A stretch of DNA of 64,000 bases. Origin: Amphiscolops sp. MND2022 (taxonomy: Eukaryota). Where the stretch lies: positions 49,664,001 through 49,728,000 of the forward strand of contig OZ076409.1 of NCBI GenBank assembly GCA_964187785.1. Direction: 5' to 3'. The position numbers were made by a program, and so were the translations under genes. Shown here piece after piece: positions 9,081 to 62,400 of this stretch; position 1 is the stretch's first letter; each line of letters starts with the position of its first letter. The notes under the pieces were generated by a model, which did no database searches, was not told where the DNA came from, and saw only the letters and a program-made list of their open reading frames with translations.

Positions 9081-9084
9081 CGAA

Positions 9085-10599: not shown

Positions 10600-11050
10600 A
10601 ATGGTATAAATGGATGGATATATGGGTAATCTTTTTCTGTGAATGTCGAAAAATTTTGAATGTTGTTCTTTATAAGTCATAATGTTTTGTTGAGAGTCTA
10701 AATTTTGAAAATTTATCTTGAAGAAAGGTGCTCCAAGATTATTGTACTTAATGTTTGCTACTGCAAATTCAATATTGAAAGATCTATTTTGATGATTTAC
10801 TTCGGTAAAGCATGTCATTGAAACCTAATGTACTATTGGTACTTCAGTTTGGTTGGCAACTGTAAGAGTTTTTGCTCGTTTATTTTCAATCTCCCTTGGA
10901 ACATTAAGGTTTAATTGTTTTGCAATTACAAGAAATGTTGGTAGGTTTAAAACTGAAATAGAAGCTCCAGTATCTAAGAGAAATAGAATTTCTAATTTTG
11001 AAGGTAATATGTTGTCTTTTCTTTCAGAAGCATGTATATATAGTGGATAA
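10600..11050 (-). pseudogene. Retropepsin-like aspartic protease (disrupted)
   Basis: Minus-strand translation FLLDTGASISVLN at ~10950-10985; downstream IEFAVANIKYNNLGAPFF is the ILG.F-type motif. Confidence 0.85.
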
Positions 11051-11189
11051 AACTACCTATAAGGAGTAATTGTGTTTGCAATTTCAGTGATTTGACATGT
11101 GTGAACTTCAAATTTAGTACTATCTTTGTCATTAGTAGATTTAACATCTTCTTGATTGATTCTGTTTTGTTGTCTGTTCTGTGAAGGCG

Positions 11190-35400: not shown

Positions 35401-38400
35401 ATGCCGAAAGCTTCCAAAAGCCCTCAAAGATTGGCAAGCCTTTGAGGAGTTGAAGAAGACGATTGATGACTTCAACGAGACTTGTCCCCTGTTGGAAATG
35501 ATGGCCAACAAGTCAATGAAGACAAGACACTGGGACCGTATCGCAACTCTCACGGGGCACACTTTCGACATAGAGAGCGAAAACTTCCTGCTGAAGAACA
35601 TCATGGAAGCCCCTCTGCTGCAATACAAAGAGGATATTGAGGTTAGAAAATTCAAAAAAAAATGAAGAAAAACGAACTGCTGTCCTTTTAGAAGGAAGAT
35701 ATATGAAGTGCTTCAGGAATTATTGTGTCAGAAAAATTCTGCTCAATTAAGGAGCTTAATGTTTTCAGCCAGTAAAATGTTTGAGTTTCTATGAATTAAA
35801 TTTAGTAGGTGTCATATCTGATTAGATGGAAAAATAGCTTTTTTTGGCCAAATTCGTGAGCAGAATGAGATGAACCTTCGAAGGAATGTAAGCCTACGAT
35901 AATTTTACTGACTAAAATAAATATCTCAAATGATATCTTTTGAGATATTTAATTTAGTCAGCAAAATTATTATAGATTCGTTCGAATGTTCATATCATTC
36001 TGTTCACGAGTTTGGTCCAAAAAAGCTAGTTTTCCAGCTAATGAAATGTGACAGCTTTTGAACTTGATTTCATAGACTCAAACATAAAACGTCTCGTGAA
36101 AATGTCTAAATAACAAATGCTATATGAAACATTTCATTCATTTGCTATTTAGACATTTTCACAATACGTTTAATTCAACGTGCTGGACACATGATTCTTC
36201 GGTTGACGAAACTGCTTGCATGCAATGCTTACTGGTGTTTCTAGGATATCTGTATCGCGGCCGTAAAAGAGAAGGATATTGAAGCTAAGCTGAAGCAGGT
36301 TGTTACTGACTGGAGTGTGCAGAGCTTCTCATTCGGAAACTTCAAAACCAGAGGAGAGCTACTTCTCAAAGGACAAGAAACGAGCGAGATTGTGGCACTC
36401 ATGGAAGACTCGCTTATGATACTGGGGTCTCTAATGAGCAACAGGTAAGGACAAAAGAATCTTAGAAACATTGTGGGTTTCCGTAGGAAATTGTTATGTA
36501 TGTTGAAAATGAGCTCTTGGCTATGAAATGCGATTGTAAACATTAGTATCTCATCAATGCATGACTTTATGATGACATTTTTTAGCATGCCAATCTTGTG
36601 ATACCTTTTCCCAATATTTGCTTGAAGCTGAATATTTACTTCAGATACAACGCACCCTTCAAAGCTGATATCCAAAAATGGGTTCAGAAACTGTCGACCA
36701 CGACTGAAATCATTGAAAACTGGATGACTGTTCAAAACTTGTGGGTCTATCTTGAGGCTGTGTTTGTTGGTGGTGACATTGCCAAACAGCTGCCCCAAGA
36801 GGCCAAACGATTCTCCAACATTGACAAATCCTGGGTCAAAATCATGACCCATGCCCACGAAAACCCCAATGTCGTGACGTGCTGTGTGGGAGATGACATG
36901 CTGGGTCAACTTTTGCCGCATCTTCTGGAACAGCTGGAGCTTTGCCAGAAGTCATTGACTGGATACCTTGAGAAGAAGCGTCTAATCTTCCCCCGATTCT
37001 TCTTCGTGTCAGATCCCAGTTTGCTGGAAATTCTGGGTCAAGCCAGCGATTCGCACACAATCCAAGCGCACTTGCTGAATATCTTCGACAACTTGGCTAC
37101 TGTTACTTTCCACGAAAAGGAATACGACAAAATGATGGCGTTCAATTCCTCAGAAGGAGAGAGCATTGACTTCGAAAGACCAGTTCTGGCCCAAGGAAAC
37201 GTGGAGATCTGGTTGGGCACATTGCTTCAAGAGCAGCAAAAATCCCTCCATGGGGTTATCAGAAGAGCCAACGTGGCGTTGGGAGATGCTGGATTCAAAA
37301 TGATTGAGTTCCAGAATCAGTTTGCAGCTCAAGTTGGTTTGCTGGCCTTGCAAATCATCTGGACTAGAGATTCCGAAGTGGCGCTCCAGAATGCGAGAAC
37401 TGATCGAAAGGTAAACCCACTTATTTTGAACTTTCTTAACCTAAATGTTAAAGCATAATACATAATTACATACAACTTGATGGCGCTGGATTTCACAGAA
37501 CAATGGTGTCAGGACATTTCGTCCTATGCAATTTCATTCAACCTATGCAATTTCAACCGCTGCCAGATCAATACCGAATTTCCGAATAGAACAATGGTTT
37601 TATTAACCAAACAGCTAAATTTGGCATGTTTTAGACGACTTATTCAATAAAGAATACGACCAGACTGCAATTTTAGCTAGCTTACGGGCAACAATTCGTT
37701 TTTTTTTCGAAGAAAAGCAATACAGTATTTCTCATCTATCATTTTTTCAACCAGATCATGGCGAACACAAACCAGATGTTCTTGGATATTCTAAACGAGC
37801 TCATTGACCAAACAACTCACGAGTTGACAAAAATGGAGAGAACCAAATTCGAAACCCTCATTACCATCCACGTGCATCAGAAAGATATCTTTGATGACCT
37901 GGTGAGATTCAACATTAAGTCTCCCGGTGACTTCGAGTGGCTCAAACAGAGCAGATTCTACTTCAAAGAGGAGACGGATGAGTGTCTTGTCTCCATCACT
38001 GATGTCAGCTTCAACTACATGAACGAGTACCTCGGATGCACAGACAGACTTGTGATCACGCCTCTTACTGACAGGTTTATTAGTCAACAAGTTTTTGCTG
38101 ATTCTAATCTTATGTGGCAACATTTGTAGCTTCTGACAAGGTTTAATGTTTTTGATATACATGCAAAAGGATCATGCAAAGGGACCATCAAAGCGTTATG
38201 GCATTCTGCATTTATGAATGAAAAAGAAAGATTTAAGATTCAATTTATGTAATTTAAACACCATTGGGGCCTTCCGAAACCTTTGATATAGAGAAAATGA
38301 ACAATACTTTTGAACATTTTTTCAAAAAATCCAGACAAGACTTTTTCAGATGCTACATCACACTGGCCCAAGCCCTGGGTATGTCTCTTGGAGGTGCCCC

Positions 38401-41400
38401 AGCAGGACCCGCCGGAACCGGGAAAACAGAAACAACTAAAGACATGGCTCGATGTCTTGGCAAATACGTCGTTGTGTTTAACTGCTCTGATCAAATGGAT
38501 TTCAGAGGTTTGGGTCGTATTTACAAAGGTCTGGCTCAGTCTGGATCTTGGGGATGTTTCGACGAGTTCAACCGAATCGACTTGCCCGTATTGTCTGTGG
38601 CCGCGCAGCAGATTTACGTCGTCTTGCAATGTAAGAAGGACAAAAAGTCACAGTTCATTTTCACTGACGGTGACATTGTGGATTGCGACCCTGAGTTTGG
38701 TTTGTTCATTACTATGAACCCCGGTTACGCTGGTCGTCAAGAATTGCCTGAAAATTTGAAGATCCAGTTCCGATCTGTGGCTATGATGGTGCCGGATCGT
38801 ATGATCATCATGAGAGTGAAACTCGCCAGTTGCGGTTTCCAACAAAATATTATCTTGTCCCGGAAGTTCTTCACTCTGTACAAACTTTGCGAACTGCAGT
38901 TGACGAAACAAGTTCACTACGATTTTGGGTTGCGAAACATTCTCTCCGTGCTTCGAACTCTCGGAGGTGAAAAGAGGTTGAATCCTCAAGATGCTGAAAA
39001 TATCACCGTGATGAGAGTCTTGCGTGACATGAACTTGTCCAAACTTGTAGACGAAGATGAGCCGTTGTTCTTGTCTCTCATTGATGACTTGTTCCCTGGA
39101 ATCGAGCTCGATAAGAAAGGATACCCAGAAATCGAAGCTGCTATAAAGCGAGAGATTGAGGAAGTTCAGCTGATTCATCATGCACCTTGGGTGTTAAAAT
39201 TGATTCAGCTCTACGAGACCCAGAGAGTCCGATGGGGTATGATGACATTGGGTCCCTCAGGAGCAGGTAAAACCAAATGCATCCATGTTTTGATGAAGGC
39301 TATGACAGAATGTGGAGCGCCTCACAAAGAAATGAGAATGAACCCCAAAGCCATCACTGCGCCTCAGATGTTTGGCAGACTTGATGCTGCAACTAATGAT
39401 TGGACGGACGGAATCTTCTCAACTCTGTGGCGTCGAACTCACAAAGTGAAGAAAACAGACAACGTCTGGATTGTTCTGGATGGTCCTGTTGATGCCATCT
39501 GGATCGAAAACTTGAACTCTGTGTTGGACGATAACAAGACTTTGACTCTTGCGAACGGTGATCGAATTGTAATGGCTCCGAACTGTAAAGTAGTCTTCGA
39601 GCCCCACAACATTGATAACGCATCACCAGCTACCGTGTCCCGAAACGGCATGGTGTTCATGTCCAGTTCTATTCTAGACTGGGAACCCCTAGTCAAAGCA
39701 TGGTGTCTCCGACAACAAGCCGGTATTGCCGATACAATGTACCCGCTGTACGAAAAAGTGTTCCCAAAATTGTACACTTTCATTGTGCAGAGTTTGGTTC
39801 CCAAAATGCCGCTTCTGGAAGCTATGTACGTGCGGCAAAGTTTGGACATGATGGACGGTCTCTTGCCTAGCGAAGAAAACGCGAAAATGCCAAGCGACAA
39901 ACACCTGGAAAGGTTATTCGTTTTCGCAATCATGTGGTCGCTTGGAGCCGTCTTGGAGCTGGGAGATCGTCTGAAAATGGAGGAGGAATTACGAAGCATG
40001 AAGGTCAGTTAACAAAACTCCATTCTAGTAGCAAACCAATTCTAAACTAAACTGAAGCAACATTTAACTTGATCACTTTCTTTTTTCAACAAGAGAAGAT
40101 TTTCAAGCTGTTGAACCCATATTCATGTTTTTAGTCGGCGCATTTCGATTTAGGAAAAGTGACCGATTATTACAGGGACTAGTTTTTGTCAGTCTCACTC
40201 TAATTGGTCCACTTTTTGTGCTCGGTGCACTTTTACGATAAGTACTTAGTACTTGATTATGAACGCATCCGAAGCCTCTAATATGGAATACAGAACCATT
40301 CGAAAGTAGAAGGGTCCCCTTTTCCACTTTTTTCGGCACCATGAGACTTTGAAAAGTTTTTGATTTCGCCAAAGGGTCCCCCTTCAACATTTTGACTGTT
40401 TCAAGTTGGGAAAGAAGTTTTTGCAAGTCCACAAGGTCCCTCCTTTGGTTTTTTCGGATTTTCGAGGTATTGAAAATTTTCCTAAAAACATGTTTTAGCA
40501 TATAAAAATGTGTTACACTTTTGTGCCATTAGCGGGGTGCCGACTTGGGCCGTTCCCGGCTTGATTTAAATAACTCCCTCATATTTCATAAATGCGAAAG
40601 CAAAATGCAGCTGGCGTTTTCCTACCGATTTTTCTTTTTTCTAATTTCATACTCCGGAAGCAGTTCTTCGACTGAATTCAGAGACGAAAACATTAGGTTC
40701 GTAGAAGATGTAGTTATGGAGATATCTGAGGCCAACGACGACACAATTAATTCCTTGGCATGCGTTTTTTAAAAGAAACTAAAAGCAAAATCAAAGAAAA
40801 CGATTCGAAGAAATTTTTTTCAAAAAAATATAAAACAAACCAAAAAAGCCAAAACGTGTCATAGTTTTCAAATAGTTGAACTGATCCAAGTTTTGAACAT
40901 TTTCGTTGGCATAAACTAATTGTCTGCCTTAAATTATGATATTGCAAAAATAATTCAGACAGAAAATATCCCAGTGCTCAATAGGTTTTTTAGTCGGCGC
41001 TTTTCTAGTGAAAAGTGCCCGACTATTACAGTGGCTAGGTTTTTTCGTCAGACCAAATAGCTCACCCTGTATGTACCACTTTTTCTGCATTATGCACTTT
41101 TACCAAAAGTACTCAGTACTTGATTTCAAACGCATCCAAAAGCCTCTAACTTGGAATACAAAACCCAGAAGGGCCCCTCTTTCCAATTTTGGGCACTATT
41201 TTCGACACTATGTCTCCAAAGGGTCCCCCTTGATTTTTTGTAAATGGATGGATGTTGAAAAAGCCCAAAGTGCCCCTTTTACATTTTTTGGCACTATGAG
41301 ACTGTTCAAAATTCTCATTTTTCGTTTTTTTTTCGAAAATTTTTGCCGAAGGGTCCCTCCTTCAATTTTTTTTGATATTTTGCAACAAACTGGATTTTCA

Positions 41401-44400
41401 AAAAGCCAAAAGGGTCCCCCTTTTACAATTTTAAAAACTGCGCTTTTTGAGCCTTGGATATAGCGCCGACTTTAGACGTTTCCGTCTTGTTTATCTCCAG
41501 ACTGCTTTTTGATCAGATTCTCTCATTAGTCAGCGCTGAAGTTTTTCTTCATCTTTTATCCTTGTGTATTTAGGTCGTGGATCTACCGAAGCCGATGTTT
41601 GAAGGAGACACAATCTTCGAGTTCTTTGTCGCTGATAATGGAGAGTGGGATCACTGGAGCAAGAAGGTGGCTGAATTCGAGTACCCCAAAGACCACATAC
41701 CTGATTACTCCGCCATCTTGGTGCCCAATGTCGACAACACCAGAACTGATTTCTTGATCCAAGTCATTGCCAAGCAAGAGAAGGGAGTGCTTCTTATCGG
41801 TTAGGACATGTTTTGTTCAATATAAACAGGATTTTTCGCATTGCTATGAAATGTTGACTGGTCTTTCACGCTACACTGGCATGCAGAGATGAAGAACGAT
41901 AATTTTACTTTTTTCTTACTTAAAACATTTTCACGAGGGTGAAAAGTCTCTGGACTTATGATACAAAAAACGTTCACATGCGTCATCAACATTACTTAGG
42001 CATTTACATTTTTAGTAGACTCTTTCAAAAATTAGTTTTATTGTGGGAAACCTTTCTTGTTCGTTTCAGGAGAACAAGGTACCGCCAAAACTGTCATGAT
42101 CAAGGGTTTCTGTGGCCGGTATGACGCCGAGTACCATTTGAACAAGAGCATGAACTTCTCTTCGGCCACTGAACCAATCATGTTCCAGCGAACAGTTGAA
42201 AGCTATGTGGACAAACGAGTGGGTACGACTTACGGACCACCAGCAAACAAGAAAATGACAGTGTTCGTCGATGACATCAACATGCCAGTCATTAACGACT
42301 GGGGAGATCAGGTTCGTCTTCAATTCCTATTGGCTCGCAAGGGGAAGAAGCCCCATTACGTCATTGTACAATATTTCCAGAAAACGGAGCTGACTTTTCG
42401 ACAGAATTTGAACTCTTCTCCTTTTAAAAACATTGGATTCTGTGTTCATTTACAAATGTACATATTATCAAAGTTCCGGAAGTCAAAAGGTCCACAAGCT
42501 CACTCAATTTGTTTACGCAATATAAACTCGAAAGACATCCCAGTTGCACTTTAGAATCTGAGAGGCAAGATGCTTTTTTTCTTTCTGGGTGTTAATCTTG
42601 ACAATTTGAGGGTCAATTTTTTTCAGATCACAAACGAGATTGTGCGTCAAACGATGGAAAACAAGGGTTTCTACAATCTAGAGAAACCAGGAGAGTTCAC
42701 CTACATTGTGGACATCCAGTTTATGGCTGCAATGATCCACCCGGGAGGAGGACGAAACGACATCCCCCAACGTCTGAAGAGACAGTTCAACGTGTTCAAC
42801 TCCACTCTGCCCTCAAATGCTTCCATCGATAAAATCTTCAGCACCATCGGAAAGGGACACTATGTGGCGGAACGTGGTTAGTAGTTGTTAACGGTTGTCT
42901 TTTAAGTGTATCGCGCGCTTAGGAAAAACTTACTCTGGTTCATATTCAAATATTCGTTTTAATTTTCAGAGTTAATGGTCACTTCAAAAAATATAACTGA
43001 ACCCGTTTTCACAAAATTCCGCTACACTCAACCAATGTTACAAATTTGTTTTTTTGGCGGGTATATCGAAATATCGAATCAAAAAAATAGCAAGAAGGGT
43101 GGGTGGGCATATCGCAGGATATTAGGTGCGGAAAATCCCAAGGCCTAATTCCGGAATATCATTATTTAGAACTTTTTCAGCCTCTTAATCATGAGCCTCG
43201 TAAAGCGATAACGTTTATTAACCTGAGCTGGTATTACAGGGTTCTCCGAAGAAACTAACGACTTGATTGGCAGACTGGTTCCCTTGACTCGAATCATCTG
43301 GCAGAGAACCAAAAAGAAGATGTTGCCGACACCAGCCAAGTTCCATTACATCTTCAACTTGAGAGATCTTTCCAGGATCTGGCAAGGAATGATCAACACC
43401 ACATCGGAAGTGGTCAACGACACAAAGACTCTCATTGAGTTGTACAGACATGAGTGCACGAGAGTAATCGCCGACAGATTCATCAACTATGACGACTTGA
43501 ACTGGTTCGACAAGTCTATCAAAGCGGTGAGGAGCTCTTTAAATTGACATCAAATTTGTTCAATGGAAGATGAAGATATTAAGGCTAAAAATTGGTAAAT
43601 AAAAATAATGAGCACCTTGATGAGATGAATCTATTTTACGGGGGCAGCACATTGTAGTGAATTGCTTGTAGTTTGAATTGCTTGAACTTTTCACATGCTC
43701 GTCAAAGTTGACCTGCAACTTTTATTAAGAGTTTTCAAAACTCTTACCTGAACTTCCATGCAAAAGTAGTCACTGATACAATTGAACTTTATCAAGTTGC
43801 CTGAAAAAATCTTTAAAAAGTTGGCGACAATTTTAAACCGTCAAGTTCGCAAGTTTCATTATGCATCAGTACTTTATTAAAAGCAACTGAGAAGACTCCA
43901 AATTCACCGCCATTTTAATTCGAAGTAGCTTCAGGCACGTCATAAGCTGGAAACTTAGCGTCATCTTCAGCGCGCTACTTGAGCATCAGATTGTTAGTGG
44001 AGAAATCAAGGTGTGATTTCAACTTGATCGTGTTGACAATGATATGGAAATATTTAAATTGCAATAGTGTCAAATGCAGTGTGAATCCACAAGGTTTACC
44101 AGCAGACGTTTACTGATTTTTTAGTCGGCGCTTCATGAAGTGAAACGCGACTATTATAGTGACTCTTTTTTTCTATCCACACGAACTGACCAAAATAGTT
44201 CTTAAAAGTTCTACAAAATATTATTGCACCAAATTGCACCATTTGGCAGAGCGAAATGAACCAAAAAGGATTTTCCTGTTTTTCCGCGTAACATACCATA
44301 CCGGGTGAGACCAAAGGGTCCCCCTTTCAATTTTTTTCGGCACTGCGAGACTTTTTTTCGGAATTTTTTTTCCCTAAAGAGTCCCCCCTTCATTTTTTTG

Positions 44401-47400
44401 CTGTTTTCGTCAGAATGGATGTTGGAAAATCCCAAAGGATCCCCCCTTTCAGTTTTTTTGGCATTGTGAGACTTTTTTAAAAAATTTTTCACCAAAGGGT
44501 CCCCCTTCAATTTCTTTGATATTTTACAACAAATTGGGCGTTTAAAAATCCCAAAGGGCCCCCTATCAGTTTTTCGGCATTGTGAGACTTTTTTTCGAAA
44601 ATTTGTTTTTTCTCCAAAGGGTCCCCCTTCAACTGCGACAAAAATGTTGACCATTTCGGAAGTGTCCCCCTTTTAGCGCGCCAGGGGCTCGCGCTAGTGG
44701 GCCCCGGCGCGCCACTCGGTCCATTGTTTTGCTTTTTCGATTTTCGAGTACTGTAAATTGACACTATGGAAGTCCTTTTGCTATTTTTGAGCCTTGGATA
44801 TGGCGCCGACTTGGGCCGGTGCCGGCTTGTTAAGCTTTTATGAAATGTAACCTACATGCAGGATTATAGCATGTAAAAATTCTTACAGTCTCAATTAGAG
44901 TCCGGTTTGAATATCACAAAACTCGCCCTTGTTGGGTCTCAAGCAAGTCTTTCATCCGTAGTTTAGTGACATGAGCAGCGATAAAAAATTATCAATTTAG
45001 CGGAGAAAAGCTAAATAAAACGAGCAACACCAAGCAGTCAGACTTTTGTGAACTCAAGCAAGCTATTTCAAAGCACCGCTTAAAAGATGCAACCCTAGTC
45101 GACGTTGCCGCGAAGTTTTACAGGCACCTTCATAAAATGCTGGCTAATTTTTTATAAAACATGGAAAGTTCAGGGATTATGCATGGAAACATTTTGTAGG
45201 ATTACTATGCAGCTTTCGCTATTTGAGTTAAAACTGAAAACATTTCCACTTCACCACCGCGATCACGTTGTTTTCACGCGTAAGTTTCTCAAGCAACTAC
45301 TTTATGGAAATACCCTTAGTCAAATAGCACGCTGAATAGACGCTAAATTGAAACTTATAATATGACTGAAAATTATTTGCATTGAAATCGCGGTAAATGT
45401 GATGAAGGTCTCAGCTGCTTTCAAAATTAGAACGGCGTCATCATGGACCCTGCAAAACTTCGCGGCTTTGAATTGCCGCCAAATTTAAGATGCATCTTTT
45501 AGGCAACTTGATAAATTTAAAATGCATCAGTGACGTTTTAATGCATAGAAGTTTCCTTGAGAATTTTATAAAATCATGAAAAATTAGCTTGGTAGCCTAC
45601 AAAAATTTGTAAAAAGTTCAAGCAGTTCCAACCAGGGAAGCCGAACGTTGCTTGACCACTTGGCTGCAAATTTGGTACCGCAAATGTGGTGTCCACAGGA
45701 ATCAATTTTTTCACGGCAAGTTAAACTACTTACCATATTTTTAGCTAAGCATTAAAAATTGTCGACTAGAAGCCGTGGTTTACAAATAGCTTGTTTCAGG
45801 GTTCAAAAGTCTGATTGCTCACCGCTGGTTTTTATGATTTTTCCAATTGCGTTCTTTTTAAAACTTCGCTCAGTACCAAAAGGCGATTTGCCAGGTACTT
45901 GAACTTCGCACCGCCCAAATAAGGCACCACGATTTTGTCACTTTTGACTTGACTTGCACTTGTTGAGTTTCATTTTTTCAGCTGGTAGTGGAAGAACTGG
46001 GGGCTGAGTATCAACAATACATCGAGGTCGAACCCTACTTTGTGGATTTCTTGAGAGAAGCCCCTGAGCCGACAGGTTAGTAACTTTTCTTGAAAGTAAT
46101 GAGCGTCGTAATTATGTTTTAGAGTCAACTTCCAAACAGTTTGTGTAGAATATAGGCTAGAAGATAGAAAAGTAGAAGGAATGCTAGAATGCACTGAAGG
46201 TTGCTGTGAGATCTACTTAGTGTGAATGATTGAATATATTGAATCTGGACAATTTTATCCAATGTAACAACAGAAACTAAGTTTTTCACCAAGGTTTGAC
46301 ATGTGAACAGCATTTTGTGAAAATTCTGAAAACTCAAAAAAATCGTCCAGAAAACAATGACTGTAAGTTGTCACTCAGCATTAATCCAAAGTTTTTTGGA
46401 AATTGAAATTTTCTGATTTTTAGATCTATGATATTCTGCCAAAACTGAACTCTTAAAAGTTTTGGAAAAAGTCATTCACTGGGCAACTTTTGCACTTTTG
46501 GTTTTGACTCCTACTTAGTGACCTCTTGCTTGTATCAGGCGAAGAGTCAGACAGACTTGCACGAAGCAGCCGTAAGTTCAGGAGAATTGCGTCAATCTGA
46601 CGTCATATCTCGGTTCTAGTTCGCCATTTAGTACCACTATACACTTCTTTATTGCGGCTCTTCTCACGTCAAATCAAATATTGGCAGTTCATCGAATTTT
46701 TCATTTCCTAAGTAAGGATCACAAAGAGCCCAAAATGGGTGTGACGTTATAGATGACCCTTTTCTTGTATTTTGGTCGATTCGTTACTAACAACTTCAAA
46801 ACTTTAAATATTCATTTCTGAACATTTAAACTTCATGAAAACAAGCAGCTTCATTTCTTAGATTTAGTTCTTTTGTTCATATTCTTCAGAAACCGAACCA
46901 GGTAAATGAGAAAATTACCATATGGCTTTCAAGCGGCTGATATCTTAGAATTTTTAGCAAGAAAATGAAAAACTGTCGAGAAAAATTTTCTCAAAATCAT
47001 GCCAAGAAATCTGGAAAGCGGGATCATGTGAAGCCGGGAATTTTGGCCAGATTTCCAGAATTCATCAGAATTTTGCCAGGATCTTGTCGAGAATTCCAAG
47101 ATGTCAAACGCTGGATTTGTCAATAGTATAATTCAACTCTATATTTTGATGTCAACTTGTCAATAACATCAAAATACATCTCACATCATTCCGTACAACT
47201 ACCATTTTTTGTTTCGTAGTTAGCCGGTGAAATCTTCCAGTGCTTTTTCCTGGAAATATTCCTTCCACTTCTGTTTCCGGGCATATTTGTCATGCAAGTC
47301 ATACGTTCCAATGACAATCAACATTTGAAACATATCCGGAAGTGTTACCATAACTGAAATCAATTCTCTCGTCATGACAAAGCTTTCATGTTTTCCATAT

Positions 47401-50400
47401 ATGATCATAACACGCATTCCATGTTTCCATATTTTGTCATAGATTGACTCCGATGATTTCGTGGCGGACAATTTGAAACCGCCGTAAATAAGGAGTTTTT
47501 ATTTGTTGATAAAATGTATGCTGAGCAGCCATTGGTTTTTGTCGTTCGATTGATGATCATGACATCAAAAATATCGAAAAAGACTTTCAAAAGGTTTTTT
47601 TAAAACTCCTTGAACTTTTTGGTACCTTTGGGGGCTTTTGTCTCATTTTGAGAGCATTTTAGGGCGCAATTTTAGTCGGCGCTGTATAGTTGTGGCTTTT
47701 CTTCTTTTAAGATCGACGAACTGACGAACTTTATTAGTTTTATAAGCTGTTGCTTTCACAGTCTACTGCCACAGTGAACTTGTAACTTCTACTGCCTTTT
47801 GACACAGAAGTTAATCAGGAATTTTGAGGTCTGCGAAGCAGAAGGACATGGGTTCGAGTCTCGCACTTGACTAATTTTTTTGTGCTTGTTAATTCGGCTT
47901 TGTGAGACTTTTTTTGTGTCTCTAAAGGATTACCCCTTTAATTTTTCAATATTTTGCAACAGAATGAATATTTAAAAAATCCCAAAGGGTCCCCCCTTTT
48001 ATATTTTTCGACACTTTGAGACTGTTCCAAAGTCGCATTTTTTTCGAAAAAATTGTCTCCAAAGGGCTCCCAATTTTCTTTTCGAGGGGCTTCTTCATTT
48101 TTTTTATAATTCGCATCAAATTGGGTTTTTTAAAAGCCCAAAGCCCCCTCCCCTTTTGCAATTTTTGGCATTGTGAGATTTTTTCAAATGAATTTCTGTC
48201 TTAAAGTTAGGTTTTCTCAGCACGCTTAATCCGAATTTTGTTTTTTGAAGACCGGCGTTTTTTCCATGCAAATTTTTCCAGTTTGTTTTTATCGAAACGC
48301 TTCTCAATTTTTGCTAGAAACGAAAAGTTCTGCGAGCATAGAGGACTCCTTAGAGGTTTCGGCACTATGCGACTTACCGGAGACTTCAATAAAAAATGTT
48401 TCCAATTTTTAGTTTTTTGAGAGGTTTTGTTGTCTCCAGTTGGGGAAAAGTGGTTTTCGAGTCTTATTCATATCCCTTGAGGTATATTTTGACGCTGTAA
48501 AATTGATGAAATTATAACAAAGTGTACTTTTGCATATGAAAAAAAAATTTTTTTGAACCTTGAGCGGGACGCCGACTTGGGCTGTTCCGGGCTTGTTAGA
48601 AGAAACTCTATCTTTCGACTATGGCAAAGTTAGAGAAAAAGCCGGTTGGGAAAGTTAATTTCTTTCCTATATTATGATAAATGGGCGCAAAATATTTCCC
48701 ATATTGTGAAATACGGGTAGAAAATGAAAATTATTTCCCTCTGCAGAGCAAAACAGAAATATTCCACCGCAATCAACCGAAGTGTTAAATTGGTTGAGCA
48801 GTCCACAATATGTATGGTTCAAAGTCAAGATAATAAAACAAATAACACAAAGCTTATTTTTGATTTGCTGCGGTATTTTTGAAAACTCGGAAAATGATTA
48901 TAGAAAAGAATGGTACATCGTTTCAACAATAATGGTTTTTGAAAGCCAAAACAACGTCAAATTCGACTAAACTAAAGGTTTCTTTATCACTAAGGTCTAC
49001 TGAATCAGTATACCGGCCCCAATCTGAAAATAATGGGCACAAACTTCCAAAAGTTTGGAAAGGAAAACTTTTTCTCTAAAAATTGAATTATTTACCGGTT
49101 CAACGCTTTCTAGTCAAGCTCTTCAGAATTATTCCATATAAATAAAACAAGTACTATTGTTGTATATTCATGCCTAAAAATATCGCGACTTTTTAGTCGA
49201 TATTTTTTGAAAATTAATTTTAAACCATGGAAAAAATTAAACTAAACATTTTTATCGCATTCTGTCCAAAACAAGATGCTTGACTCAAGGAACGAGTGTG
49301 TTGGTTACTAGGAGACAAACTTCTCCGTCAGTTATATAAAATGTAAAATTCGAACGTGTTGAAAACAGCAATGAGGCAACAGTCTTTGAAACAACAGTAT
49401 TCCAAAAAAAATCTGAAGATTATATAAAAAATGTTTCCGCGACACTTTAAAAAACTTGGTTTTGGAATGTTCCTACAGAATCGGAGTGCATTATAATGAA
49501 TCAGCGAAAAATCTATCTCAGTTTTTATTCATAAGTTGTGTACTTTATTCATCAGTATTTTCAATATGACCTTTTTCTGATGTTAGTCTTTGTTTGTTTG
49601 TTTGTTTGTACAGGAGAAGAAGCGGACGATGCCGTGTTCGAGGCTCCCAAAATCTACGAGCCCATCGAGAGCTTCGACCAGCTGAAACACAAACTCACTG
49701 AGCTGCAAGTGCAGTACAACGAGGCTGTCAGAGGAAGTTCTATGGATCTTGTGTTCTTCAAGGTTTGCTTAAATCATCATCACTTTGTTTCGCATGCAAG
49801 AACCCAACCATTGCACTGATTTGATTAGATGGGCTCGCCTCATGAAAAACTGCTTCTGCTGGAAGTTGAACTTTGGTAAATTTAGTTTTTTTGCAAACAA
49901 GTTTGAAAACACAAAACGGTTTGATATTTAAGTTTGATTCTAGTTTGCTTCATATAATCACCTAGGGAAACAGTTCTACAACACGGAAATATGTTTTTGG
50001 AAAAGTTTTTCCGTAGTTTTTGAGAAATGTCAACTGATATCTATGGTGAGGTGAGAAACCTTTGTGACGGTAGATTTGTTTTTAGGACTGTATGATTCAC
50101 TTGACGAAGATTTCGCGAATCATTCGAACCCCGAGAGGAAACGCCCTGTTGGTGGGTGTCGGAGGTTCCGGAAAACAGAGTTTGACAAGACTGGCTTCTT
50201 TCATCGCTGGATATAAGAGTTTCCAGATTACTCTCACTCGGTATGTTTCCCTCAAAATTCCACGACTAGTCAGTGCTTTTGGACAAATCTAGTTTTTCAA
50301 AACGTGAAGTATTTCAATTTTGCAGTCATCTAACTCATGTTACCAAGAGCTTGGTTCATTTTCAATTCTGAGCTATTCATTTGACGTATTATTTCGCAGA

Positions 50401-53400
50401 TCCCTATAAAGATTTTTTGATCTCATTCCAAGTTCATCATAACCATCTCATAACCTCTTTTTTCAGTAAACTATTTAATGGGCTCCAAAAATGTGTTTTG
50501 AGCCATTTTAATTTGAACTTCACCAAGTGATATAATTTTGAATTTATTTAATTATTCAACGTTCCTTTTTCAATAATTGTCGATGATGTGAAACTTATGG
50601 GAAGTTTTCCCACTCCCTGAGCTTGACCTCATTGAAAACATCGTTTGCAGTTCGTACAACTCCTCGAATTTGTTGGATGACCTGAAAGTGTTGTACCGAA
50701 TGTCCGGCTTCCAAGGTCTCGGAGTAACTTTCATTTTCACTGACAACGAGATCAAGGACGAAGGGTTCCTCGAGTTCATGAACAATGTCCTCGCCTCCGG
50801 TGAAGTAAGGGCTCTCGATCTCTTGTGAAATCTCATCTGTGACTACTTCACACTGCTGGCCGCTCTCTTTTTGTCATTTATCTTCTTTCTTTTCTGTTTC
50901 TCGTCTTTTCTGTTTCTCAAGTTATAACTAATTTGGTTTGCAAAACAAATAACTGAATTGTAAAATTCATGGCGTATTAAAATTTTGCAACATTTGTCTG
51001 AACATTTGTCTTCAAATACCGTGGATGCACCCTAATTGAAAGGTCTTGGATTTTAATACATTGTTCCGACGAGTGACTTGAAAGGTCTTGGTAACTACTT
51101 GGTTAAAAGTTGAAACTTTTGTCTGATCTTGTGAGTTTTTGGTAGTGTCTGTTTGATCTAGCAAAATCTTGTAGTTTTGTTCTGGTCTCCAAGAATTTTG
51201 CAAAATATGAATGATCTTGCATTTTCTGATTCACTAGATAATTGCATGTTTCGTCTGAGTTTTGAAGGCATACAATAAAATTGCAGAAATATATTTTTAC
51301 TAGGGCAGCAGAAGCTGCGTTCTAATTACTTTCAGCTTATTTAGTCTTCTCGCAAGACATTGTTTAAAAAACTATGCGAAAACATTGTTTTCTCCCCGAT
51401 CATTGTGCATGCTATAGATTTTTCATACAACAGGAACAAACCATTCATCTTACAGAGTCTGGTTCAATTTTTTCACGTAGAAATATATATTTTTTGGTTT
51501 CAGACAATACTCACATGCAAACTTATTGCAAGATTTGCAAACTCTGTACCGTTCTGCGGGTGCTGATGGAAGAGGAACCGTGTTTTTATTCACGGATAAT
51601 GAAATTAAAGAAGAAAACTTCTTGGAGTATATGAACAACGTGTTGAGCTCTGGAGAAGTAAAAATGCCATCACGCCCTTTTCACACCCTTTAGTTTTCGA
51701 GACACAACGAAAAACGGAAAACGGCAAAAGAATTTGTGATTTGTTCAGATCAGATTTCTTCATCTGATATTCTACATTTTGAAAAAAATGATCACAAGGT
51801 GGATATTAGGCTTTCGTGAATTGTATTGCAACAATCATCTATTTTTTCGAACAGAAAAAAACATTTTGTATATAAATTTCAAAAATTTATTTGTTTTAAA
51901 GAGGCCATTTGACTGCACAGTGTCATCACTAGAATAAAACTGCAGAAAAACATTTTTACTAGGGCAGCAAAAGCTGCGTTCTAATTATTTTCATCTTATT
52001 TAGTCTATAGTAGTTTTGTTCAATGCTTTTACATAAAGCTCGGCTTTCACGACTTAAGTGATCAAAGATACTCTATATTACCAATCACTTGATTCTCTTG
52101 ACGGATATTCCCAACAATCATATCATTAACATCTTCGGTTTTTAAACTTGTCTTGAGATGCACCGTTCTTATTTGTCCAATTCTATGCAAACTTTTCCTG
52201 CAAACTTTTCCCAAGTTTCTTCATACCGCTTTCTAATCCACTTTCAATATCATAACTAAGCTTTCTCACCTTCCAGTGAGATCAATTCCTGTCCACAAAC
52301 ATTTGTTGTTGCATTTGGCAGGTGTCAAATCTGTTTGCTCGTGATGAGTTGGATGAAATCACAGGGGAGTTGGTGCCTGTAATGAAGAAGGAGTACCCCC
52401 GTAGACCCCCCACAAACGAGAATCTCTACGACTATTTCCTCACTCGTGTCAAAAACAACCTCCATGTTGTTCTCTGCTTCTCACCCGTGAGTGCCATGCT
52501 CATGTTATATTTTTTATACAAAATTACCGTTAAAAGGACAAAATCTTAACAAAATCATTACTTATAATCAGAGTAAAAAAGATCTAAATCACATACATCA
52601 TATACTGACAAAAAACGTGCGTATGAAAAACTGTAGATCATTTTGTCTGAAACAGGGAGTTACTATGTAGCTGGTTTAACTGATAGGTTGGTGAGAAATT
52701 CCGAAACCGATCACTGAAGTTCCCTGGTCTCGTGTCCGGATGTACAATGGACTGGTTCCACAAATGGCCCAGAGAGGCCCTGGTGGCTGTGTCGGGACAC
52801 TTCCTGACACCATTCGAAATTGTGGCGCAAGATGCCGTCAAGACCTCCCTCATCAACGTCATGGGTGAGATTCACGACGGGGTCGCGGAGACTTGCAGCG
52901 AGTACTTCAACAGGTAAATATGGTTCTTTCCCAGTGAAGAAAAACAATGCACATCTGTATGCGAGATGTACAATGAAAAAATGTAATCATATGTTGATAT
53001 AAATTTTGAAATATTTTGAAATACAGCCTTTCTAAGACTCCAAAAAAAACAAACATTTGAACCACAGTAGTGTTAGTTTCATCCTCTCTCAATATTTTGT
53101 GCTATTAATGTGTTTTTTGTCCTGTGTCTGTTTGGAATGCAATACTTTGCAATGATTGTGCTACAAGCTAAACGATTGAAAATCGCGTTGATTTTCAAGT
53201 ATTCAAACTCATTGGCAGGTTCCGACGTCAAACGCACGTGACCCCAAAATCGTACTTGTCTTTCTTGGACGGTTACAAGACAATCTACTCTGAGAAGAAG
53301 GAGAGACTGAAGACTCTGGCTGAGAGAATGCAGACTGGTCTGGACAAACTGGTTGAGGCCACAGAGAGTGTCAACCAGCTGAGCAAAGAGCTGGCTGTCA

Positions 53401-56400
53401 AGGAAAAGGAATTAGCTGTCGCCTCCAAAGAGGCTGACGAAGTGAGACATCACTTTTTTAACACTAAATTGAATGAACACGACTACCGCTAAGCACTGGG
53501 ATATTTTCCACCCGAACTATTTTACCACCAAACACTGGAAAAATTGTTCAAAGTTCGCACCAAAGCTGCTCCAAAATTAAACTTTGCAACTTTTAAAAAA
53601 ATTTCAAGCTCTGCTTTTGAAAAAGAAGATACTTTCAGTTCATATGCTGCGAACCTTGTTTCTTCATTGTTGAATTCTGTAGATGAAGCTTGTTTCTGGG
53701 TATAAATTTGGAATATCTCAAAATTTGTGAAAAAAAAAGAAGCGACTGAGAGATTACTTTTTCCCATATGAAAAGCATGTCTTATGAAATCTCCTGTTTT
53801 CCTTACGTTGCCATAATTTAGCAAACCAGTTGTAATTTTGTTTCCACAAGCGATGCAATTTTTTCTTCTGATTTTTGTCAGATATTTCATTGCTTAAATA
53901 CTTAATATTACCAATTTAGACAAGTTTCAACTAATTCTTTTTCAGTGACTTCTATACCTTTGATTTGCAATAGCACTTTTTGTAATCCTGTGTATTTTGT
54001 TTAACAGGTGTTGAAAGAAGTGACGTCGAAGCAGGTGTCGGCTGAGGCAGTGAAGGCACAGGTGCAGACTGTGAAAGACAGGGCCCAGGCACTTGTGGAG
54101 GAGATTGAGGCTGACAAGGCTGTGGCCGAAGAGAAGTTGTCTGCGGCTGCTCCCGCTCTGGCAGAGGCCGAGGCTGCTCTGCAAGTCAGTTCTAACTACA
54201 TAACATCAATCTGATATGATTTGACATTGCATGACATGACATGACATGACATGACATGACATGACATGACATGACATGACATGACATGACATGACATGAC
54301 ATTGCATGACATGACATGACATGACATGAGATGAGATAAGATGACTTGAGTGCAACTCCTTCGAGATGTCCAAATACATTCGAAACATTTTGACATTATC
54401 TAAATTTGGAGGGGTCGGATTAGCCCTCATTTCTCAATATTCCTCATAAAAACAAAAAAAGGTTTTAAAAATATGTTTTCATTTCAAAACTGGCAAACTG
54501 AATAAAAAACACTCTTGCATCTCATTTTGTGATCTGAACGATTTGTTTCAATAAAATAAACTTCATAAAATGTTTACAGACAATCAAAGCGGCGGATATT
54601 GCAACTGTGCGTAAATTGGGAAAGCCTCCCCACTTGGTCATGAGGATCATGGACTCTGTGCTGATCCTCTTCCAAAAGAAGATTGACACGGTGACCAAAG
54701 ACCCCGAAAGAGAGTGCGTGAAACCATCCTGGACTGAATCCCTCAAGCTGATGGGTAACACTGCGTTCTTGTCCATGTTGCAGTCATTCCCTAAGGTCAG
54801 TTCATTTCCTATACAATGCATCTAAAAAGCTTTCGGATTTTTTTCGGACGTAAAATTTCTTTAAAAAACTCAACTTAATTACTTGTAATAATAAATTTTT
54901 ATGGCTTTTAGAGCAAATTTTGTACTCTAAATTTTATTGACAATTTCGAAGAAAAGAATTTAATCGGCTTTCGGATATGAAACCGTGACTTCTGGATACG
55001 AAAGCACTTGAAATGAACTTTAAGGTCGAGCCCGGGACCAGTTGGGTTAAGACCGTTAAAACTGAGCCACATTTGTTGTGCTGATTGACTTGACTACAGT
55101 TCAATATATAAAATAATGGTCACCAAAGTTTTGAACTTTCTGAATGGTTCATGAAGCCTCAAATGGCAATTTCTTACTAGAAAAATGTAAGGTTTCTATT
55201 TCTCATAAATGAAAAATTTGCGTGAAAAAAAATAAACCAAATTTGAACGTCAAAATGCTTCAGGATACCATTAACGAAGAAATGGTAGAGTTGTTGGCTC
55301 CTTACCTAGAACAAGAGGACTACAACCTGGAAACAGCCAAAAAAGTGTCTGGCAACGTGGCTGGTCTGCTTTCCTGGACCCAGGCTATGAGTTTCTTCTA
55401 CGGTGTGAACAAAGAAGTATTGCCTCTGAAAGCTAACTTGGTTATCCAGAGTTCCAGATTAGCGGCCGCCCAAGCTGAGTTGGCAGAAGCTCAGGAACAA
55501 CTGGACCAGAAAGAGGCCGAATTGAAAGAGGTGCAGAAAATGTACGACGCTGCGATCCAGAAGAAACAAGATTTGCTGGACGACGCCGAGTCTTGCAGAC
55601 GAAAAATGCAAAACGCCACGACTCTTATTGACGGTCTATCCGGTGAGAAAATACGATGGACTGAAGCCAGTAAGTCTTTCGAGGACCAAACAATCAGGCT
55701 AGTCGGAGACGTACTTTTGGCGACAGGATTCTTGTCATACTCCGGACCCTTCAATCAAGAGTTCCGTAACCTGTTGCTGAAGTCTTGGAGAAAACTAATG
55801 GCAAACAACAAGATTCCATACAGCGACGATTTGGATTTGATTCAAATGTTGGTTGACAATGCCACAATTGGTGAGTGGAATCTGCAAGGACTGCCAAACG
55901 ATGATTTGTCTGTGCAAAATGGTATTATCACAACCAAGGCGGCAAGATACCCTCTGATTATTGACCCACAATTGCAGGCCAAGTCCTGGATTAAAAACAA
56001 AGAACGCGATAATGAACTTCAGGTGGGTTTTGGTAACTTTTTTGAAACCACTTTTCATGAAAAACTTTGCCGGAATTTTTGTAGATAACACTAGTAAGGC
56101 CCTTCGAGTCCATTCTAATATCAACAAATTTTAGTTTTGCATTTAAATATTTGCATTTACTTAATGCGTCTTTTTTCTAATTGAGACATTTACTTCCAGG
56201 CGACATCGCTGAACCACAAATACTTCCGAAACCACTTGGAAGATGCTTTGTCTCTTGGTCGACCCCTCTTGATCGAAGATATCAACGAAGAACTTGACCC
56301 CGCTCTGGATAACATCTTCGAAAAGAACTTCATCAGGTCAGGTCGTCAACTGAAAGTCAAGGTGGGAGACAAAGAGTGTGACGTCATGCAGGGATTCAAG

Positions 56401-59400
56401 ATGTATGTGACAACCAAACTGGGTAACCCCAGCTACACCCCTGAGATTTATGCCCGGACTTCCATAATTGACTTCACTGTCACAATGAAGGGTCTCGAGG
56501 ACCAGCTGCTTGGAATTGTAATAGTCAAAGAGAAAGCGGTAAGTTCTGACCTTCTACTCTTCATCATCGATATTTTTAAATCCTCATCAACTTCGGGAGT
56601 TTAGGTTTCATTTTCACAATTTAGGGTGCTGGTGATTCGCGAATGTTACTCTAATTTCGTGTAAAGTGTTCGACGGTTGCACATTGTTGAGTTGGCATTA
56701 TCAACACCAGAAGTTTTACCAACAAACTTTACTGCAGAGGAGCAAAAGCTCAGACAACATTAAAAACATCAACGATTTAGTTATGTAAACTTCTCGTCGG
56801 CTTCTAGTCAATGATTGTCAAAACGTGTACCTAAAAGTGGTAAAAATTTGGGATACAAGTTCCATATATTAAGTTTCAACTTCATGCGTGTATGTTATAG
56901 GAGCTTGAGCAGGAGCGAGTGAGTTTGATGGAAGAGGTCACCGCCAATAAGAGGAAGACACAAGAGTTGGAGGACAACTTGCTATACAGGTTGACCTCGA
57001 CTCAAGGGTCACTGGTAGAAGACGAGTCACTTATTGCGGTGCTACAGACAACCAAGGTCACAGCAGCCGAGGTCAAGGAGAAGCTCAAGGTCGCCGCTGA
57101 GACTGAGATCAAGATCAACACAGCTCGTGAAGAGTACCGACCAGGTGATGATGAATTTCGAAATCTTAGCTGAATAGATGAAGTGTGCCTTAATGAAGTG
57201 ATGTGCTATTGTTCTTTTTAAATCAACTGATCAAATGTTCATTTTTTATTCAAAAATGTTGATGAATAGTAGAGATCATTGAAAAACATGCAAAATCTTG
57301 AAAAACCAACGCCAACAATGAGTTAAACAAGAAATACTTCAAGGATATTCCTTGTTTAATTCATTGTTCGCGTGAGTTTTCATTTTTGAATCTGGAACTT
57401 TCATTTTAGTTATTCGGAATGAAGTATAGCTATATCACAAACGGTTTTAACAAAAATGCTGAAGGTTTTGAGTTTTTAATAAATCATAATTTATTTTTCA
57501 GTCGCGAACCGAGGTAGCATTTTGTACTTCTTGATTGTGGAGATGAGCATGGTCAATGTCATGTACCAGACTTCTCTGAAACAATTCTTGGGCATTTTCG
57601 ACCTTTCCATGGAATTGGCGGTCAAATCGCCAATCACGAGCAAGAGGATCTCCAATGTGATTGACACTTTGACCTATGAGAGTTTCCGCTATACGATCAG
57701 AGGTCTTTATGAGGAGCACAAGTTCATGTTCACTCTGTTGTTGACCCTGAAGATTGACCTCAACACCAAGAGGATCAAGCCGGACGAGTTCAATGTTTTG
57801 ATCAAGGGTCAGTTCTTCACAATTTTGTAAACTATTGTTGCTTTTTAGGAAAAAGTTGGTTTGATTGAAAATCGTAATCACCCAAAGTTTGAAATGGTTA
57901 GATAGAACACAAAAAGTTTTGGTCTTGATCACTTTGAATTTGTGTTCTATGAAGGAACAGGTGAATAAATTCTCTTTCCGTGAAGAATTCTCTTTCTGTT
58001 AAATTTTGTAATAAGTTGCGATTATTGAAAAAGCGCGTTTCAATGATTCCTTTTCCAAATTGCAGGAGGTGCTGCTCTAAACTTGAACGCCGTTGATCCC
58101 AAACCCAAGAAGTGGATTCTGGATATGGCGTGGCTGAATTTGTGCGAGCTGTCAAAGCTGCCTCAATTCAACCAAATCTTGCAGCAAGTGAGTTATTGCA
58201 TTTGTTATTTTGAAAAGATTAGCAATTTCATGCATTGATCTGTAAGATCATCACATTTCTGTGCCATTCGATGCATGGAACCAATCCACACATGTCTTCA
58301 ATACTATTTCATTTGATCAGTGGAAAAAGTGGTAAAATAGCTGACGATGTTGGGAAAATGAGAAAAAATTGCTGAACCCTTCCTTGTCCGATAGATATAA
58401 AAAAAATTGGAATAAAAGCATGAATGTGAAACTAACATGAGCAACACTAAAATTTCCTAACTTGCGCAAAAGTAAAGTCACAACACAACAGAATTCTCAA
58501 TTAAGTAGAATTGATCCACCGTGAATGTCTTCAGGTGTCGAGAAACGACAAGGCTTGGAAGCAGTGGTTCGACGAAGATGCTCCAGAGGAGGCCATGATT
58601 CCGGATGGATACAACACTCTGGACCCGTTCCGCAAACTGCTTCTCATCAGAAGCTGGTGTCCGGACAGAACTCTGGCTCAAGCCCGTCATTACATTGTGG
58701 ACTCCATGGGAACCAAGGTATGCTAAACTGGGTCATTTTCACAGCGCATTATAGTCTTACGTAAAAACAATCTATTTAATAATTCTTCTGAATGAAGTTC
58801 CAGCATGTTGAATGGTTTCAAATTTTGCAAATCACATTTTCCATTATCTAGATTTGGTCTGATGAGAAAACAATAAATCAAAAGTATATCCGTCGATTTT
58901 ACTGTATCAAGTGCCTCTTCAAACAATACTGCAGAAATACTGCTATAATAGCCTTTTGAAAGACGAGGTATCTCATCTGATAAAACTCACCATAATCGAA
59001 ATTTGAACTTTAAACCGTTGCCTTTCAGTTTGCCGAGGCGCAAATCTTGAATTTGGAAGCCCTCTGGGAGGAATCGGACAACAGGACACCCATGATCTGC
59101 TTCCTGAGTATGGGCTCGGACCCGACAGAGAGCATCGAGAAGCTGGCTAAAAAACATGGACTAGTGTGCAAAGCCATCTCCATGGGTCAAGGTCAAGAGA
59201 TACACGCCAGAAAACTACTGTCGACCGCTATGGCGGAAGGTTCGATAAGTTCGAATGCACTTTAGGTCAAACAAGACGGGAACGTCTAAAGTCGGCGCTA
59301 TATCTAAGGCTCAAAAAAACGCTAAGTTTTTAAACTTGTAAAAGGGGGACCCTTTCGGCTTTTTGAAAATCCAGTCTGTTGCAAAATATCAAAAAAAATT

Positions 59401-62400
59401 GAAGGAGACAATAGAAAAATTCGGATTTTTTTTGAAAAAACTTTCGAAAAAACGAAAAATGAAAATTTTGAAACAGTCTCACAGTGCCGAAAAACTAGAA
59501 AGGGGGACCCTTTGGGCTTTTTGAAACTTCAGTTTGCTACAAAATATCAAAAAACTTGAAGGGGGACCGTTTGGCGACAAAAGAAAATTCTAAAAAAAAG
59601 TCGCACAGTGCCGAACAAAAATCAAAGGGGGGACCCTGTAGTCCCGTCCGGTTTTGTATCTTACGTTAAAAATTGAGTACACGAAAAGGGGGACCCTTTG
59701 CAGTAACTCAGATGTGATTCCGCTTGCCGGTTCAGTACTTTTAGTAGTTCTGTAAAAAGTGTCCACTACGCATACATTCTGTGGTCTGACGAAAAAAAAG
59801 AAAAAAAAACTTGCCACTGTAATAGTCGGGCTCATTTTCTTCTAAAATGCGCCGACTAAAAATAGGCTTCACAAAATAAAACTGAAAAACCAACTTGACC
59901 AAAACAGAGCCTGCAAAACATCAAGCTAATTAGTCAGACTAATGCTTCATTTAACCCGGAATAGAGGTGGAATTTTCTGGATCCATCGTAAAATCGGTTG
60001 CTTAAACTTTGAACCGCAATATCTCCTTAACTATTCAAGTCCGATTTATACAGCGTTCGAAAGAGGAGCATCAGGGCTTTCAAATCAATTTTTAAACTGC
60101 TGGGCTGGGGGCACTGGCTCCGGACTTTGCGCCAAAACTTTGCACGCGTCGTGTCTCTGCTTGCTTTTTAGCATGTTTCAAAACATTCTGAGGCCGCTTT
60201 GACCCAATGTTGACACCAGTGGGTTAAAAGGGCCAGAAACGAAAAATGGGAAAATGGAAAATCTGCAGTTATTTTTTTTGAATTTTTTGTCTCATTTTCT
60301 GGATTTCGGAGACATCACGTCAATATTCCGTGAAAAGGCGCCGAATGCTATGCAATATTGTCTGAAAATCTTATTCAAGAGTTTGCTTTACCATACGGTG
60401 GGCAGGTGCCTTTAGAAGTTCGCAGATCTTAAGTGGTGCAAATACGTACCGCGATGCTAAATAGGGTTAAAGATAATGTCACATATAGTCTAGCACATAT
60501 ACATGAAACCAGTCAAACTCGAGGCGGTTTTCTGCTTTCAAAGTATCCGCAAAAGACGTGATTTGTTACTTATTGCAATACGCCAAACTCTCAAAATAGT
60601 TTTTGAAGTTTTAGCTAACGTTTTTTTGCAACTTTTCAGATTATTCAGGAGTATAGTCGAATGAAACCTAAAACTAACCCATTTTAATAATACTTGAGTT
60701 TACTCAACCCATTTCAAGTATTTCAACTTTCTTTGCTTTGCAGGTGGCTGGGTGCTGTTCCAGAACTGTCACTTGGGTCTGGACTACATGGACGAGATGT
60801 TGGACAACGTGGTTTCGGCTGAGAACCCCCACGAAAAGATGCGCGTGTGGATAACCAGTGAGGCTCATCCCAAGTTCCCCATCACTGTCCTCCAGAGCTC
60901 CATCAAGTTCACCTTTGATCCCCCACAGGGAGTCAAGGCCGGTCTGAAGCGAACATTCGCAGGTGTCACCCAAGACCAACTGGAAATTTCCAACCTTCCC
61001 GAGTGGAAACCATTGTTGTACGCTGTTGCATTCTTGCATACCTGTGTACAGGAGAGAAGGAAGTTCGGGCCTCTGGGATGGAATATTCCTTATGAGTTCA
61101 ACTCGGCTGATTACACGAGCACTGTCCAGTTCTGTCAGAACCATTTAGACGAAGTGGATCCAAAGAAGGTGGGTAGAGTTTCGAAAAGGTGGTTAAGGCT
61201 TTCGAGAAGGAGTCATAAGTGATATCTCATCTAAAGTGGAGGTTTTTTCCTAGGACTTCAAGAACAATTTTGATAATTTTCATTGATAAGTCTTAGATTT
61301 TTTGCAATGTATACTTGAAAATACTTTGCTGCATGAATTCTTGTTTTTATTTTTGACAAAGTTAATCAGATAACAGGAGAAAAATTGTCTGATAATGCCT
61401 TGGACACTGATAACTTACCAAGAAAAATTACCTGAGACTCCTTAAGTGAAAATTACCAGATGGAAAAAAGTTCTTCTAGTAAATAGTCCCCGATTTCTTC
61501 GAGCCGCAGGCCATTAAAAAGTGATGGCCTTGCTATGTGTTCCTGAACCAAAGCGCCATGTTAGACCTCAAAACTGCATTTATCTCAATTGCTTATTGTT
61601 GTCAATTTGTCCCAATACATGCATGATCTGAAGGAAGAAATTGAGTTTTGCGGGAAGACCAAAGTTACAGAATTTTCCCATGTCTAGAAGAAAAATCATC
61701 ATCAATCAGACTTTAGTTTAAAAAAGATTATGCCTTCTAAACAATTTGCTTCTTGTTCGTAGGCAACTTTGACCATATTTGTCACTTCTGATTCTAAACA
61801 TCATTCATTGCATAATGAACATTTGCAGGGTATTTCGTGGGCGACAGTGAGATACATGATCGGAGAGGTTCAGTACGGAGGGAGAGTCACTGACGACTTC
61901 GATAAAATTCTACTGAACTGCTTTGCCAGGAGCTGGTTCGGAAACCACATGTTTGAGGAAAACTTCTGCTTCTACAAAGGTAATTAACCCAGATTCAATC
62001 TTTGGTTCATGTGTTTAATAGCTTTGGCCTGAGCAAAACTGCTCGGAACGTATTTGTTTTGAAAAACGGTAAGCGCTCCAAAATATTACTTGTAATCTGG
62101 GTCATATCGAAATTCCAACAAGATCATCATAAGAAAAATCACCTGAGGGATTTACTTAGAGAAGTTTCAAGTAGCAATGACAGGTTTAATAACAAATAAT
62201 TCGTTTCGAGTTCTGTATAAAACAACATCCTTGTCTGTTTCCAGGCTACTCTATCCCCAAATGCAAGACTGTGGAGGAGTACAGGAACCTTATCGAGGGT
62301 ATGCCTAACGTGGACTCGCCTCAGGTGTTCGGTCTGCACTCTAACGCGGACATCACCTACCAGACGAACACGGCCACCATGTGTCTGGAGACCATCCTCA

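Follow-up and report, generated by a model that had tools for sequence, protein, structure and literature searches.

A gene for an axonemal outer-arm gamma dynein heavy chain runs to the end of the window (the whole stretch of 64,000 nt from Amphiscolops sp. MND2022 that was analysed), and carries two neighbouring versions of one exon, here called A and B. To judge from the genomic sequence, A and B very probably are a functional mutually exclusive pair, spliced one at a time, from which two versions of the gamma motor would be made. Only 19 residues, all within a single regulatory AAA module, would set these motors apart; the rest of the chain of 4,600 residues would be identical. The splicing principle is already well known, with a precedent in cytoplasmic dynein; the A/B pair would be a natural minimal experiment on the role of AAA4 in axonemal dynein. 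The features discussed are the following.

20316..64000, plus strand: host gene of the pair, encoding an axonemal outer-arm gamma dynein heavy chain of class DHC3, recognised by tblastn, trees and PDB comparisons
50086..50240, plus strand: upstream constitutive exon, 155 nt, with the AAA4 P-loop (Walker A), in phase 2 at its end
50651..50804, plus strand: exon A, 154 nt, AAA4 helix, presumed Walker-B strand and helix, GC3 about 0.7
51271..51347, no strand assigned: first copy of a 77-nt intronic element, located 467 nt downstream of exon A
51504..51657, plus strand: exon B, 154 nt, the second form of the module coded by exon A
51930..52006, no strand assigned: second copy of the 77-nt intronic element, located 273 nt downstream of exon B
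52322..52486, plus strand: downstream constitutive exon, 165 nt, phase 0, AAA4 continued

Anatomy of the exon pair

Both exons are preceded by AG and followed by GT, run from phase 2 to phase 0, and are read in the same frame without stops. All this had been predicted along with the length of 154 nt, and holds at the positions given above. The two exons are identical at 32 of 51 residues and at 84 of 154 nucleotides, with matches at 30, 39 and 15 of the 51 first, second and third codon positions, respectively. The original prediction had set the same residue count beside diverged silent sites, and had proposed a dN/dS comparison of the two copies. The comparison supports it: pN is 0.30 and pS 0.97, four-fold silent sites differ at 7 of 8 and two-fold sites at 9 of 18, and the 95% lower bound of dS is about 1.1. 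Silent sites are thus saturated, and the duplication must be old.

In a spliced model covering positions 34151-57794, inclusion of A alone, or of B alone, gives 8433 nt with zero stops. Joining both exons brings 53 stops, skipping both brings 48, and the claim that only either/or inclusion keeps the frame is thereby confirmed. When A is joined to B, the first stop is met 19 codons into B. Messages carrying both exons, or neither, would terminate early, and plausibly be cleared by nonsense-mediated decay. Both exons match the Pfam profile AAA_8 (dynein AAA4) at positions 60/61-110, B with 41.9 bits and A with 34.0 bits, and the neighbour exons match the same profile at positions 10-58 and 112-163; the segment sits in the AAA4 module after the P-loop, as anticipated. 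Exon B is covered by a stop-to-stop frame of 70 aa, and is of a kind that gene annotation would likely overlook.

A and B are adjacent, homologous, similar in length, provided with compatible splice sites, tied by an either/or frame and under purifying selection, as mutually exclusive clusters are. Self-comparisons of the window gene revealed no second duplicated exon besides A/B. The same search in the paralogous gamma chain gene of this genome, hereafter the C5 paralogue, revealed no duplicated exons in the part compared (residues about 1579-3778).

Each exon is followed by one copy of a 77-nt element. The two copies form a direct repeat, 70/77 identical (91%), with a short hairpin inside, and genome searches, one of them tolerating three mismatches, retrieved these two copies only. 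The order A-element-B-element is the expected remnant of a tandem duplication. If the elements were duplicated along with the exons, an identity of 91% beside saturated silent sites would require strong selection. Several results speak against a function of the element: local direct repeats are common in the genome (13 in 164 kb, the 77-nt repeat counted). The element gave no Rfam match near threshold and no unusual folding (z 0.1 and -0.4); pairing between the two copies did not go beyond shuffles, and no significant intron partner was found either. The element may be a conserved splicing element, or alternatively a young local duplication. Another intronic repeat family, with several copies in both orientations, occurs at 41150-41500, 44270-44840, 47920-48170 and 59240-59700.

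Selection, splice signals and rival readings

Family consensus and invariant columns (n=27) were taken from 178 distinct homologous exons. B departs from the consensus at 17 residues, 15 of which lie within residues 1-28, and changes 1 of the 27 invariant columns, where 9 changes are expected (p = 1.4e-6). A shows 10 departures, and changes 1 of 27 invariant columns as well, with 5.3 expected (p = 0.003). In neutral simulations with d = 1, the open frame and both splice sites survive in 0.4% of the runs.

A HMMER search with B as query against 1.84 billion representatives identified P0456, encoded by an ENA contig of 320,636 bp from another genome, which matches B at 50/51 residues; the runner-up stands at 72%. 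P0456 retains 16 of the 17 departures of B, along with the residues at both exon boundaries. The chance of finding one change or none under 10% neutral divergence is 5e-5. Intron-derived flanks of P0456 and B, compared over 51 bases only (36 nt before and 15 nt after, back-translated from the protein), score no higher than shuffled sequences (p 0.51 and 0.89), and controls at 20% divergence score far above them. Since B is kept while the flanks differ, B appears to be conserved in a genome with diverged introns, which most simply would belong to a related species. For A, the stored proteins yield a match of 43/51 at best. Protein-level purifying selection is shown for both copies by the residues that they have kept. 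The view of an old exon pair under selection, put forward in the original prediction, gains from these data: 26 of 27 invariant columns are kept by each copy, and B is found in P0456.

Sequence identity of B is 64% with A, 60% with the C5 paralogue and 42-61% with other dyneins, and its best PDB match is a gamma chain. A tree of the 51-residue exon does not settle whether A and B are sisters, and pulls B toward other dynein classes (support 0.92), possibly as a result of long-branch attraction.

Splice sites were compared to 21 constitutive sites of the same gene. Exon A has a donor of 5.6 bits and an acceptor of 4.2 bits, exon B a donor of 3.0 bits and an acceptor of 8.0 bits, and all four fall inside the range of the constitutive sites. 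The donor of B is weak, being third lowest against the 21, and 12.5% of decoy GTs score as high. B is richer in A/T-ending codons, as had been noticed earlier: its GC3 is 0.41 (21/51), versus 0.51-0.72 in the 23 exons of the A-isoform model (p = 0.008 against 0.59). This value is indistinguishable (p = 0.16) from the GC content of the three adjacent introns (0.33-0.34). The low GC3 fits a less expressed form, without amounting to proof, and B is probably the regulated, cell-type-restricted form of the module.

Mechanisms ensuring mutually exclusive splicing are enumerated in PMC5740500. Given that the A-to-B intron measures 699 nt and the donors are ordinary GT sites, steric hindrance or U2/U12 incompatibility are unlikely. 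A frame shift followed by decay would be the safeguard on hand for either/or use. RNA pairing of the Dscam type was sought, and docking/selector pairing in the introns did not go beyond shuffles (best p 0.06-0.58); sub-windows of the 77-nt elements gave p 0.04-0.92 in four tests.

Low GC3 and a weak donor could also be the marks of an exon formerly used, and now a dead or dying duplicate, with splicing taking A alone. In line with this, five residues of B are absent from all the 178 homologous exons, and a lysine conserved at 99% is changed. Decay is very unlikely, though, since the 26 invariant columns kept leave room for no more than about 0.08 substitutions per site of neutral decay, and the unusual residues of B are also found in P0456, whose flanks do not align. 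It is likewise highly improbable that B is the main exon and A a minor or fading one, or that the relative uses B alone. The acceptor of B is the stronger one (8.0 versus 4.2 bits), and B has a near-identical homologue elsewhere, the best stored-protein match of A being 43/51; yet A is nearer the consensus, has the GC3 usual for the gene and also keeps 26/27 invariant columns, and an A orthologue could escape a representative search in which B was the query.

The stop found 19 codons into B in A+B messages would suit a role of B mainly as poison exon, joined to A in order to shift the frame and down-regulate the gene by nonsense-mediated decay, and joined reads occur in some human clusters, as reported in PMC5740500. 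Such a role is scarcely credible, because it needs no conservation of amino acids in the dynein frame, and B is conserved both within the genome and across genomes. An origin of B as an assembly artefact, or as a piece copied out of a different dynein gene, would agree with the frequency of local repeats (13 in 164 kb) and with the tree drawing B to other dynein classes with support 0.92. But the 70/154 bases at which A and B disagree far exceed what haplotypes would show, B is closest to A (64%) and has a gamma chain as best PDB match, an independent contig encodes B in P0456, and a tree this short is open to long-branch attraction; artefact or copy are thus extremely unlikely. A mutually exclusive pair is the preferred reading, and the pair would have arisen in the lineage of this animal, when an old exon unit was duplicated in tandem.

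The AAA4 module of the proposed swap, and known systems

According to the AlphaFold model of a homologue, which is of low confidence (mean pLDDT 53.8) and was used for secondary structure only, the exon codes for a helix, a strand and a helix after the AAA4 P-loop. We take the strand to be the AAA4 Walker B. Differences between A and B amount to 19 residues, 15 of which are located within residues 1-28, and there is little difference in the Walker-B core or in the last helix. B has Q in place of the acidic residue 9 and of K12, and further changes at 1-5 and 17-28. K12 is found in 99% of homologues; its charge is lost in B, as is the charge at position 9. The swap would mainly resurface the helix before the Walker-B strand, leaving the strand and the next helix almost unchanged. 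Contacts of AAA4 within the ring, with neighbouring AAA modules, or with partners, may be tuned in this way, rather than the catalytic site in AAA1. Nucleotide binding at AAA2-AAA4 is described to modify the dynein cycle, and the stalk to arise from AAA4 (PMC10835030); in Tetrahymena arrays the gamma linker is placed towards AAA3-AAA4 (PMC8500839).

B has a five-residue loop in common with the bovine sperm chain. The same loop residues are present in 9-16% of homologues, and are not diagnostic. B matches DNAH8-type exons at 34 and 33 of 51 residues, within the general range of 30-35 spanned by 120 full-length homologues. The hypothesis that B is a DNAH8-like exon was rejected on these grounds.

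A mutually exclusive exon has been predicted in SmDHC1 of Schistosoma mansoni (Pillmann et al. 2011, PMC3228551). As in the window gene, an equal-length homologous exon pair resides in a dynein heavy-chain gene, and either/or use was predicted from the sequence. In contrast, SmDHC1 is a cytoplasmic DHC1 with codons split at both ends of the exon, whereas the window gene encodes an axonemal gamma chain and its exons run from phase 2 to 0; the domain hosting the SmDHC1 pair goes unnamed in the available part of PMC3228551. Splice variants of the motor domain have also been mentioned for dynein heavy chains in general, with SmDHC1 as the one gene named in the text covered. Homologous exons of equal length within a folded domain, as A and B are, are found in the muscle myosin heavy chain of arthropods and in human clusters (PMC5740500). 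In the latter study, exon length is not a multiple of three in 60% of the human clusters, and a cluster usually includes one ubiquitous and one regulated exon. Those clusters were validated by junction reads, whereas the A/B pair is known here from genomic sequence. In the supplements of PMC5740500 that were searched, the sole axonemal heavy chain is DNAH14, with a dissimilar candidate; neither DNAH5 nor DNAH8 is listed there. No published report of an exon pair in an axonemal gamma chain was found among the literature records searched.

Two outer-arm gamma motors within a single animal also result from the switch between the paralogues DNAH5 and DNAH8, in epithelial cilia and sperm, respectively (PMC11779644; for sea urchin sperm, PMC11785096). 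Whole genes are exchanged in this switch, as is usual when animals vary their outer-arm motors, whereas the A/B swap concerns 19 residues of one module; in addition, the window gene belongs to a third subtype, and B is no nearer to DNAH8-type exons than to other exons. Sperm of sea urchin and mammals use DNAH8, and none was found here, which lends some appeal to a sperm-versus-cilia partition of A and B, though B is not DNAH8-like overall. That the animal, devoid of DNAH8, makes a sperm- or cell-type-specific motor by the AAA4 exon swap, possibly steered by the 77-nt elements, is a rather doubtful proposition. If true, the 19 swapped residues would directly mark the sites through which an axonemal motor has its beat type tuned.

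Host gene, class and distribution of the pair

The host gene probably starts further upstream of 20316, and extends past the window by about 3.4 kb (into L016), as judged by tblastn with full-length homologues. Its closest structural relatives are human DNAH5, the bovine sperm gamma chain and the Chlamydomonas gamma chain, and DNAH5, DNAH8 and Chlamydomonas gamma are closest across the motor, as is proper of the outer-arm gamma (DHC3) class. According to Kollmar 2016 (PMC5100056), the DHC3 class split twice in early animals, DHC3A being DNAH8 and DHC3B DNAH5. In gamma-chain trees of about 1350 columns, the C5 paralogue falls in the clade of vertebrate DNAH5, and the window gene in the sister clade, both with 100% bootstrap. 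A third group, the '8-like' chains of Diadema and Glandiceps, falls outside both clades. Diadema P0280 prefers the bovine sperm gamma chain 9fqr_I3 (7124 versus 6777 bits); P0227 and P0290, members of the clade of the window gene, prefer DNAH5. Orthology to DNAH5 (DHC3B) was rejected because the C5 paralogue holds that clade, and orthology to DNAH8 (DHC3A) because clade members prefer DNAH5, not 9fqr_I3. Tree position and PDB preferences make the window gene a third animal subtype of the gamma chain, presumably DHC3C. The chain 9fqr_I3, a gamma dynein of 4730 residues, is probably DNAH8; the sequence file names it 'Cilia and flagella associated protein 57'.

Among the best candidates scored, two gamma dynein genes were found in the genome, the window gene (C1) and the DNAH5-type gene on C5, and no DNAH8-type gene. 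The genome likely lacks the latter, short of proof. The C5 gene has a single copy of the AAA4 exon, with no intron after it. The C5 paralogue (L003, L017-L025) has a much longer branch (0.61 versus 0.35), fewer introns within the motor, and several introns that measure 15-34 kb. The source animal itself has a long branch, and its position among bilaterians varies from tree to tree.

In 148 of 170 homologues the family sequence is left right after the same codon, so that the donor position and the exon unit are old. Alternatives of the exon within a species were searched in 19 clusters of annotated proteins from molluscs, corals, echinoderms, a hemichordate, amphioxus, a tunicate, fish, salamanders, a flatworm, a nemertean and a brachiopod. 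None was found in the 139/163 listed members containing the region, in a type of survey in which annotation can miss alternative exons. Two copies of the exon are present in none of the 120 full-length homologues, and no second copy was seen at four metagenome loci (L012-L015), which are short enough to miss one. The suggestion that the cluster may be ancient across animals finds no support here, as no annotated isoform surveyed differs in this region, B has one close homologue, and the published case is cytoplasmic. The A/B pair looks restricted in distribution, on the sequences surveyed.

Two observations concern other sequences. The AAA4 exon of a beta-type dynein occurs twice in the genome, at L010 and L011 (G000:C6:66111110, 66164135), 53 kb apart. 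The repeat unit is about 2 kb long, with 97.6% identity; it lies within a dynein gene, and reflects either a recent segmental duplication or a duplication in the assembly. The region spanning about 1-14500 of the window, minus strand, resembles a decayed LTR-retroelement, with a strong GC skew of about +0.3; the frame 8466-9107 matches RT_RNaseH, and five other frames tested have no Pfam match.
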